Notes: generated by a model not told the origin, from the letters alone. Positions 55,811 through 63,800 are shown, counted from the stretch's first letter. The stretch: 64,000 nucleotides of DNA from Candidatus Micrarchaeota archaeon (GCA_040753215.1 JBFMEZ010000004.1:4015-68014), one strand, 5' to 3'. Numbers and translations: made by a program.

Positions 55811-56131
55811 GAGCCTGTTGCAAATTACGGATGCGGCATAATCTCTGTGGTCTCCTGGTCTTGGGGGTCTTGGAGTCTGGTGAACCTCCACGGCGTGAAG
55901 TCTTGAGTTGTCCTGAGGGTCCTGAAAGTCACACAAGACCTGAAGACCATGCAAGACCTGAAGACCATGCAAGACCTGAAGACCATGCAAGACCTGAAGA
56001 CCATGCAAGACCTGGAGACCATGCAAGACCTGGAGACCATGCAAGACCTGGAGACCATGCAAGACCTGGAGACCATGCAAGACCTGGTGACAACAGCTAA
56101 CGGGCATCGGTTTTAAATTTGCAACACCCCA
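55811..56131 (-). mobile_element. MITE-like element M, copy 2 (inverted relative to copy 1)
   Basis: Ends GAGCCTGTTGCAAATT and AATTTGCAACACCC; the unique parts are the reverse complement of 45018-45472. Confidence 0.82.
55934..56087 (+). repeat. 18-bp tandem repeat, about 8.5 units
   Basis: CAAGACCTGAAGACCATG x4, then CAAGACCTGGAGACCATG x4 and a partial unit; no spacers. Confidence 0.95.
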
Positions 56132-60801: not shown

Positions 60802-60896
60802 CCCGCCGTAGCTCAACGGTAGAGCGATCGGCTGTAGCTTGATTCTCTACGAAAGTAGAAACCGATAGGTTGCTGGTTCAAATCCGGCCGGCGGGA
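60802..60896 (+). tRNA. tRNA-Tyr(GTA) with a 23-nt intron at position 37/38 (60838-60860)
   Basis: CCCGCCG...CGGCGGG A acceptor stem and ATCGG/CCGAT anticodon stem; CTGT pairs with intron GTAG to give a BHB-type junction. Confidence 0.95.
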
Positions 60897-63336: not shown

Positions 63337-63800
63337 TTACGCGAGCTTGCTCCCATCAGGCACCTTCCTCTCCGGAACCGCAAGCACGACTTTCCCGTCT
63401 CCCAACACAAACCCGGTAGTGAGCACCTCGGACTCAAACCCCGCCACCCGCTTCGGAGGGAAATTCACCACGCAGATGACCTGCTTCCCAACGAGTTCCT
63501 CTTTCTTGTACAGGTGCATAATCTGCGCGCTAGATCTCCTTTTGCCGAGTTCTCCGAAATCAATCAGCAGCTTGTACGCGGGCTTCCTCGCCTCCGGGAA
63601 ATCCTCCACCTTCACTGAACCTCCACGGCTCGGAAGCCTCGGCATTTATGCCGGGGAGGAGAGCCGAGGCTTCCTCTAAAGGCAGCAGGAATACATTTGC
63701 CCTTTATCTACGAAGAAGCCACGGCCTTTAGGCCGTGGAGGTTCACTATAGTCCCCACCCTCAATTCCACCTTCTCAAAATCTTCCCATGTGATTGCCAT
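63337..63800 (-). pseudogene. csaA: CsaA / tRNA-binding protein gene interrupted by a 131-bp insertion
   Basis: MAITWEDFEKVELRVGTI (63800-63747) joins [16 protein letters not shown]...SSAQI...VVNFPPK...SEVL (63615-63337) to give 110 aa when the insert is removed. The insert shifts the frame and carries an in-frame TAG. Confidence 0.9.
63616..63746 (+). mobile_element. Non-autonomous IS200/IS605-type mini-element (PATE-like)
   Basis: Inserted 3' of TCAC and itself ends in TCAC. Subterminal hairpins CCTCGGCAT-TT-ATGCCGGGG and CCACGGCC-TTTA-GGCCGTGG are each preceded by a GAAG guide tetranucleotide. Confidence 0.88.

Follow-up and report, generated by a model that had tools for sequence, protein, structure and literature searches.

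The csaA gene at positions 63,337 to 63,800 of a 64,000-nucleotide (nt) stretch of genome from a Candidatus Micrarchaeota archaeon (the window; G000:C4:4015-68014, where G000 is an assembly of 1.17 Mb in 32 contigs, 91% complete) is interrupted by an insert of exactly 131 nt. On the strength of its target motif, the anatomy of its ends and the homology of its right end to elements encoding TnpB or Y1 TnpA, we read this insert as a non-autonomous element of the IS200/IS605 type, an assignment that is well supported. In particular, it is probably a PATE-like miniature inverted-repeat transposable element (MITE), moved as single-stranded DNA by a Y1 (HUH) TnpA transposase supplied in trans. An earlier reading of the window, made from the sequence alone, had already proposed a protein-free IS200/IS605-type element, and anatomy, target choice and end homology all uphold that proposal.

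The csaA insertion and the ends of the element

The interrupted gene lies on the minus strand in two pieces:

63800-63747, minus strand: csaA 5' piece, 18 codons, MAITWEDFEKVELRVGTI
63615-63337, minus strand: csaA 3' piece, 92 codons and stop, with matches to TIGR02222 (chap_CsaA) and PF01588

The chap_CsaA match on the 3' piece scores 132 bits against a curated cut-off of 119.65. An uninterrupted csaA is present in a genome of the same genus (G007, locus L016), whose CsaA protein is colinear across the insertion point of the window gene. Alignment of both pieces showed the window to be exactly 131 nt longer than this homologue, and the insert is therefore 63616-63746. The gene is also unbroken in two more relatives (loci L017 and L019). 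In the window the break falls after codon 18 and, beyond a shared TCAC, no host bases are duplicated. These comparisons bear out the earlier statement that csaA is split by a 131-nt insert whose removal restores the gene. Of the public sequencing runs, only two, both of DNA and probably duplicate deposits of one data set, contain any of the words sampled from this region, and only 0.04 of these; no RNA run is listed for the stretch. Their coverage derives from the element interior in other contexts, with no joint across the insert, and leaves csaA uncovered, so they are uninformative on an empty allele.

The element and its parts are listed below on the plus strand, its top (active) strand, which is antisense to csaA:

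63616..63746, plus strand: non-autonomous element assigned to the IS200/IS605 type, 131 nt; delimited by the G007 comparison, with an identical copy at G000:C31:301-431
63612..63615, plus strand: target and predicted left cleavage tetranucleotide TCAC, in host DNA
63616..63629, plus strand: left terminal 14-mer (left-end linker), complementary to 63732-63745
63633..63636, plus strand: putative left guide GAAG, adjoining hairpin 1 on its 5' side; TCAC by the IS608 code
63637..63656, plus strand: left subterminal hairpin (hairpin 1), CCTCGGCA/TTTA/TGCCGGGG; 8-bp stem, TTTA loop, then AGG
63662..63673, plus strand: segment with alternative pairings, complementary to 63632-63643 and partly to the right guide and the 5' arm of the right hairpin
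63715..63718, plus strand: putative right guide GAAG; guide position kept in the right ends of TnpB insertion sequences (mostly GAAG, GAAA in two)
63719..63738, plus strand: right subterminal hairpin, CCACGGCC/TTTA/GGCCGTGG; 8-bp stem, TTTA loop; homologous to its counterpart in the right ends of TnpB and TnpA elements
63739..63746, plus strand: right tail AGGTTCAC, ending in the predicted right cleavage site TCAC (63743-46)

Both hairpins share one architecture (GAAG, 8-bp stem, TTTA loop, AGG), and the first 14 nt of the element are the reverse complement of the 14 nt that precede its final C. The element strand is strongly structured, with folding z-scores of -6.2 as DNA and -5.6 as RNA and 0 of 200 shuffles folding equally well. 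By eye, the alternative pairing of 63662-63673 is accompanied by compensatory changes in the C8 and G007 homologues. The TCAC, the GAAG, the hairpins, the 14-bp end complementarity and the alternative pairing described in the sequence-only reading were all found in place.

In IS608, TnpA is described as cutting 3' of a tetranucleotide recognised by the four bases that lie 5' of each subterminal hairpin (PMC5934647, PMC3201880). The reported pairs of cleavage site and guide are TTAC and AAAG at the left end (CL, GL) and TCAA and GAAT at the right end (CR, GR), with T-4 pairing to A+17 and T-3 to A+16, that is, target position -4 with guide base 2 and -3 with guide base 1 (PMC5934647). Applied to the element, this code converts GAAG into TCAC at both ends, while a TTAC flank is compatible with a G:T wobble at guide position 1; the earlier prediction of TCAC from GAAG thus agrees with the pairing rule given for IS608 (PMC5934647). 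The target TCAC lies 21 nt 5' of the left hairpin foot and the right cleavage site ends 8 nt 3' of the right one, compared with the 19 and 10 nt reported for IS608 (PMC5934647, PMC3201880).

Mechanistically, the GAAG guide at each end of the plus strand would pair with TCAC by the IS608 rule, the left TCAC being host DNA and the right one the last four bases of the element itself. TnpA would then cut 3' of both, reseal the donor free of scars and paste the resulting circle 3' of a new TCAC. Excision of IS200/IS605 elements is described as resealing the donor without gain or loss (PMC3201880), and scar-free excision restoring csaA would follow from this known chemistry. We infer that an enzyme of this kind acts in G000, that it cleaves at the predicted bonds and that the element is excisable.

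Copies, target choice and right-end relatives

BLAST against the genome, which the sequence-only reading had proposed as a check, revealed a multi-copy family, mostly at TCAC and free of target duplications. A second 131-nt copy, 100% identical, lies at G000:C31:301-431, and a partial one in C18. A longer form of 202/203 nt is present in seven complete copies (C5, C11, C12, C24, C30 and two in C25), which are 95-100% identical, three of them 100% identical to one another; it is the 131-nt form with a perfect palindrome of 72 nt inside its left linker. Left end, palindrome and right hairpin also make up a form of 120 nt, and contig ends truncate copies in C19, C21, C24 and C26. The terminal 13-mer occurs 53 times in G000 (reversed control, 0), and outside it at most 4 times, in 5 of the 98 other genomes of the taxonomic family. 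G006, a genome of the same genus, has a full-length relative of 88% identity.

Target choice is clearly non-random. TCAC precedes 12 of the 18 left junctions in G000, followed by TTAC (2), CCAC (1) and other tetranucleotides (3); as TCAC makes up 0.28% of genome tetranucleotides, the binomial probability of this count is 4.6e-27. At the right, 17 of 18 ends read ...GGTTCAC and then run into varied, unrelated DNA. Six complete left flanks from metagenomes gave TCAC (3), CTAC (2) and TTAC (1). TCAC apart, the two flanks are unrelated in all paired copies but that of C8, where GTGA stands on either side, and we therefore conclude that no target is duplicated. The three left-junction exceptions are C28, with TCAC two bases further out, C25:59224-59426 and C8:20182-20321; removal of the C8 copy (140 or 144 nt) restored no sensible reading frame.

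The right-end 20-mer was found in 21 metagenome loci, namely 20 element copies and one solo right end (L060) that adjoins an scpB-like gene. No autonomous element is present among these 21 loci, and the 20-mer has 0 matches in the genome_contigs collection and 0 in viral_contigs. The metagenome copies are 88-92% identical to those of G000 in surrounding host DNA of 67-86% identity (loci L052-L072), so that in the two populations the element is either constrained or has moved between them recently. The spacer around locus L055 is too diverged from G000 for an empty-site comparison.

The 72-nt palindrome of the longer form has a perfect stem, TCACACCTTGTAG...CTACAAGGTGTGA, and is seen at G000:C5:31778-31849 and at the equivalent site of every 203-nt copy. 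In the metagenome copies the stem is unchanged but the loop differs. The palindrome may itself be a further small mobile repeat.

The right end of the element connects it to larger insertion sequences (ISs). G000 contains four TnpB loci, two of which hold apparently intact genes (open frames of 433 and 408 aa, the first with PF01385, PF07282 and PF12323). Two full-length TnpB copies in C13 and a remnant in C24 end in GAAG, a hairpin and TA(G/A)TTCAC, with the tnpB stop codon in or beside the hairpin loop. The same TnpB clade is found in 59 of 176 genomes of the order, and in 27 of 30 order TnpB loci (L110-L139) the motif (T/G)TCAC follows a co-varying hairpin no more than 40 nt from the stop; of the remaining three, one is at a contig end and two have no such motif. 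Most of these right ends carry a GAAGCC-type guide and a TTTAG loop that holds the stop codon.

At the left ends of the TnpB ISs, the guide 5' of the hairpin is AAAT or AATT, for which the code predicts TTAA or TT-A. Among these elements, the six G021 copies examined all begin immediately 3' of TTT(T)AA, and the C13 pair sits at TTTAA, so that the IS608 code holds for the parent elements too. The 131-nt element aligns with the TnpB-IS 3' end over only about its last 35-45 nt, and its left end, instead of being homologous to the parents' left end, is a module of the right-end type. It would accordingly have been derived from the right end of the order's TnpB/TnpA insertion sequences, the left module being a copy of the right-end module, and the target would thereby have shifted from the parental TTTAA to TCAC.

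As a separate observation on these right ends, most of the 27 TnpB-IS loci have A directly 3' of TCAC, while the right flanks of the mini-element are varied; the A may reflect an additional preference of target or guide in the full-length elements.

Genes for Y1 TnpA are present in two sister genera (G020, locus L031; G011, locus L029), with PF01797 scores of 102-104 bits, and both are followed by the same right-end type as in the mini-element. The G020 element has both ends in the locus, the left one flanked by TTTAA, and the right end of the G011 element falls at a contig end. Y1 TnpA is found in 6 of 24 other genomes of the family.

Alternative explanations

Several observations weigh against an IS200/IS605-type element served by TnpA. 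A six-frame search with PF01797 gave no match in G000, the same domain is found in 0 of 8 genomes of the genus (G000 included), and tblastn of the two sister-genus TnpAs against G000 gave no E below 0.33. A perfect terminal inverted repeat of 14 bp bounds the element and is absent from the full-length TnpB ISs here. Family C, comprising a C29 copy and copies in G002, G003 and G061, has poorly conserved left flanks (ATAC, CCCA, ATTC, TCTA, TCTC). There are short derivatives that keep the terminal 14-mers and have no GAAG-hairpin module, of 81 nt (C13:96233-96313) and 76 nt (G068). Two diverged copies, C25:59224-59426 and C8:20182-20321, have their interior reversed relative to the asymmetry of TCAC and terminal C, perhaps through inversion between the 14-bp terminal repeats.

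As to the enzyme, G000 contigs break at repeats, with 127-nt overlaps, and in an assembly that is 91% complete and broken in this way a multi-copy or extrachromosomal tnpA may be missing. A sister-genus TnpA protein found no relative in viral_contigs. The earlier proposal of a TnpA/TnpB system encoded elsewhere stands in part: TnpB genes with such right ends are present in G000 and Y1 TnpA in sister genera, but no tnpA was found in G000.

The end complementarity deserves separate attention, since IS200/IS605 elements and PATEs are described as having no terminal inverted repeats (PMC3119063). It survives two-sided changes in G006 (CCAAGG/CCTTGG), in family C (...CGGG/CCCG...) and in C28 (TAAACC/GGTTTA). 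One tentative interpretation, which we consider unlikely, is that the co-varying ends and the three mutually exclusive pairings form a functional, self-synapsing 'extended right-end hairpin' device. Were this true, DNA with only right-end-type modules, or with only the two 14-mers, could be mobilised, the device would retarget the element away from a TTTAA site policed by resident TnpB nucleases, and the mobilising enzyme might not be a canonical TnpA, in a genus where no tnpA was found.

Another reading would take the 14-bp repeats, and not the hairpin and guide modules, as the functional ends, acted on by another enzyme such as an IS607-type serine recombinase at an invariant AC or the mobiliser of the SMR-A repeats. 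The terminal 14-mers are indeed the only part common to all families, with complementarity kept through the changes given above and derivatives that have no GAAG hairpins; the accepted flanks TCAC, TTAC, CTAC and CCAC have only AC in common, and joined element ends would give a perfect 29-bp palindrome. The SMR-A repeats, for which about 110 bp, inverted terminal repeats (ITRs), no target duplication and an unknown mobilising enzyme are reported (PMC3119063), offer a precedent, and the failure to find PF01797 in the eight genomes of the genus points the same way. However, G000 has no match to resolvase (PF00239) or DDE_Tnp_1, its three tyrosine recombinases are unlinked to copies of the element (one, a partial gene, sits about 0.8 kb away from the right end of a TnpB element), and a search of 99 genomes of the family found no long element bounded by the 14-bp repeats. 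Moreover, the target motif is exactly that predicted by the GAAG guide, with spacings that match IS608, and the right end shared with TnpA and TnpB elements would be left unexplained. We therefore regard this possibility as quite unlikely.

The sequence-only reading had also suggested an orphan TnpB omegaRNA, in which a plus-strand transcript running past 63746 would act as scaffold and guide in one, bringing TnpB to csaA alleles that lack the insert, beside a TCAC target-adjacent motif (TAM), and would so retain the element. The idea has merit in that the element shares its final hairpin and tail with the right end of the TnpB ISs, the point at which omegaRNAs terminate, that G000 has two apparently intact TnpB genes, that the element is strongly structured, and that PATEs are reported, after Meers et al., to encode often omegaRNAs used in trans (PMC10055086). 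To define the resident scaffold, a covariance model (R1) was built from the last 135 nt of 20 TnpB elements, picked from the 27 with a TCAC end; seven loci with divergent or interrupted tails were left out. RNAalifold of these 20 ends yielded five helices comprising 28 pairs, of which 19 show compensatory changes, and this structure overlaps the tnpB 3' end, as expected of the omegaRNA scaffold.

R1 scored 144.7 bits on the C24 TnpB remnant and 95.5 bits on the second C13 copy, but only 22-31 bits on the mini-element copies, comparable to the 30 bits obtained from the bare right-end hairpin of an unrelated C3 TnpB. The upstream helices of the model align differently between element copies, the terminal hairpin alone being consistent, and the element has no counterpart of omegaRNA helices H1-H4. 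The clade inserts at TTTAA, which is hence its expected TAM (as judged from insertion sites), whereas the element is flanked by TCAC; and no Rfam family matched at its gathering score, the sole match being a sub-threshold HgcC on hairpin 1. Given the low R1 scores, the short right-end homology and the TTTAA site of the clade, the element does not look like a stand-alone omegaRNA for these resident nucleases. The suggestion of an orphan omegaRNA with a TCAC TAM, whose covariance match is confined to the terminal hairpin, is consequently unsupported and decidedly improbable, although an unseen TnpB might conceivably fit it.

Two side observations touch on the same RNAs. In the C13b TnpB gene (about 82760-82820), a 57-nt in-frame insert with inverted ends CGAACCTCC...GGAGGTTCG interrupts the omegaRNA/3' coding region, lengthening the protein by 19 residues and breaking up scaffold helix H1. 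The HgcC matches reach 27.9 bits (window 63632-63674) and 24.5 bits (L039:200-241) against a gathering score of 50, and the consensus of the HgcC 3' hairpin, GGaaC CccCGccc UUuA gggCGggG AGGAGG, is constructed like hairpin 1. The resemblance suggests that in hyperthermophiles HgcC RNAs may have arisen from IS605-type ends or may include a hairpin of that type; a literature search for 'HgcC' gave, among the matches listed, only unrelated uses of the letters.

Two explanations concern the fate of csaA itself. The insertion might be a selected, reversible on/off switch for the gene, given that donors are resealed without gain or loss in IS200/IS605 excision (PMC3201880) and that an ATG at 63645 within the element opens an in-frame 102-codon frame running on into the csaA 3' piece. 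However, the full identity of the csaA copy to a second one is what a recent insertion, neutral or deleterious, would give, and tnpA was not detected in G000; we judge such a switch very unlikely, and the insertion is most likely recent and simply inactivates the gene. Alternatively, the insert could be spliced from the RNA like an archaeal bulge-helix-bulge intron, leaving csaA functional. The organism is archaeal (a TBP gene is present, and the TBP control search matched only the four archaeal control genomes; the archaeal RNase P model had no match in G000), removal of the 131 nt restores the frame, and the ends pair. This reading nonetheless fails because the ends form one continuous, uninterrupted 14-bp helix which, by inspection, has no two 3-nt bulges 4 bp apart at the required positions. 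The other copies are mostly located between genes or at their ends, as expected for a DNA parasite, and splicing of the insert is thus exceedingly improbable.

Relation to known mobile elements and to other repeats

Taken as an IS200/IS605-type element, the insert resembles IS608 and ISDra2 in being placed 3' of a specific tetranucleotide with no target duplication, and in the subterminal hairpins of its top strand, which are both preceded on the 5' side by a 4-nt guide that obeys the published pairing rule. It differs from them in having no protein gene and no cognate tnpA found in the assembly, in using GAAG/TCAC at both ends where IS608 has two different guide/site pairs, and in the 14-bp complementarity of its ends. 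With TnpB omegaRNAs it shares the terminal guide-adjacent hairpin and tail, while helices H1-H4 occur only in the omegaRNA.

Among protein-free elements, the closest parallels are the PATEs of Haloquadratum and Geobacillus, described as IS605-type derivatives with near-terminal palindromes (PMC3119063, PMC10055086), with no target duplication and in homogeneous multi-copy families (PMC3119063); some of them (HqIRS46) are likewise described with the same palindrome at both ends. Like the PATEs, the element is too short for a transposase gene. PATEs are defined as elements without terminal inverted repeats (PMC3119063), and because of its perfect 14-bp complementarity we call the element PATE-like and not a strict PATE. 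It also departs from PATEs in its TCAC target, as against TTTAA in the parent TnpB ISs, and in not keeping the omegaRNA scaffold.

The SMR-A repeats of Haloquadratum (PMC3119063), on the other hand, have in common with the element a length in the range of about 110-130 bp, prominent ITRs, many copies and no target duplication, and for neither was a mobilising enzyme found in the genome. Their ITRs are described as unrelated to known transposons, and they insert into the palindromes of PATEs and IS605 elements (PMC3119063). Unlike SMR-A, the element has a right repeat that belongs to an IS605-type right end, and it inserts at TCAC in ordinary DNA. It sits between the PATE and SMR-A categories.

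At several contig ends (C5, C13, C28, C16, C17 and C18) the last 20 nt of the element follow other DNA. These sites were considered as a larger autonomous partner and proved to be a different, nested element, located as follows:

G000:C28:1-131; right ends of C16 and C17; C5:1-131; C13:1-131; C18:1-243: nested element, six contig ends

This nested mobile element, with the end ...CGGACAGTCTG and two variants of its interior, is inserted in either orientation into the right-hairpin loop (TTTA) of the mini-element, and its interior is missing from the G000 assembly. It resembles the SMR-A repeats that are reported to target IS605 and PATE palindromes in Haloquadratum (PMC3119063). A 37-nt stretch of it was not found in the metagenome contigs, nor in 60 other genomes of the family.

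Another abundant, complex repeat occupies window 55838-56060 (minus strand), G000:C5:29850-30430 and about 15 other places. It consists of tandem 18-nt GGTCTTGCATGGTCT(C/T)CA units and then a unit with ...CAAGACTTCAC, after which come the last 15 nt of the mini-element and CAGACTCC. There are 17 such ...CAAGACTTCAC units in the genome, many at contig ends, and one unit in C13 carries the 81-nt element exactly at the point of the mini-element end. Elsewhere in the window, the tRNA-Arg(ACG) at 60802-60896 is called at 85-95 nt against a 71-position model and may carry an intron.

For the annotation of this genome, csaA should be recorded as disrupted by a mobile element and not as frameshifted. 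Protein-free derivatives of IS200/IS605 are already known, and the bare finding of one is ordinary; what is new here is a modest variant that combines end complementarity with a swapped left guide, and the family makes a useful natural experiment. Its recent burst in a genome of about 1.2 Mb with no visible tnpA poses the same puzzle as that raised for Haloquadratum (PMC3119063). As an element retargeted away from the site that TnpB is expected to recognise, it could not rely on TnpB homing for its spread, and this uncoupling bears on how far retention by TnpB matters for non-autonomous elements. Finally, the natural exchange of AAAT or AATT for GAAG would move the site from TTTAA to TCAC just as the IS608 code predicts, and this guide swap offers comparative support for that code in a distant archaeal lineage.

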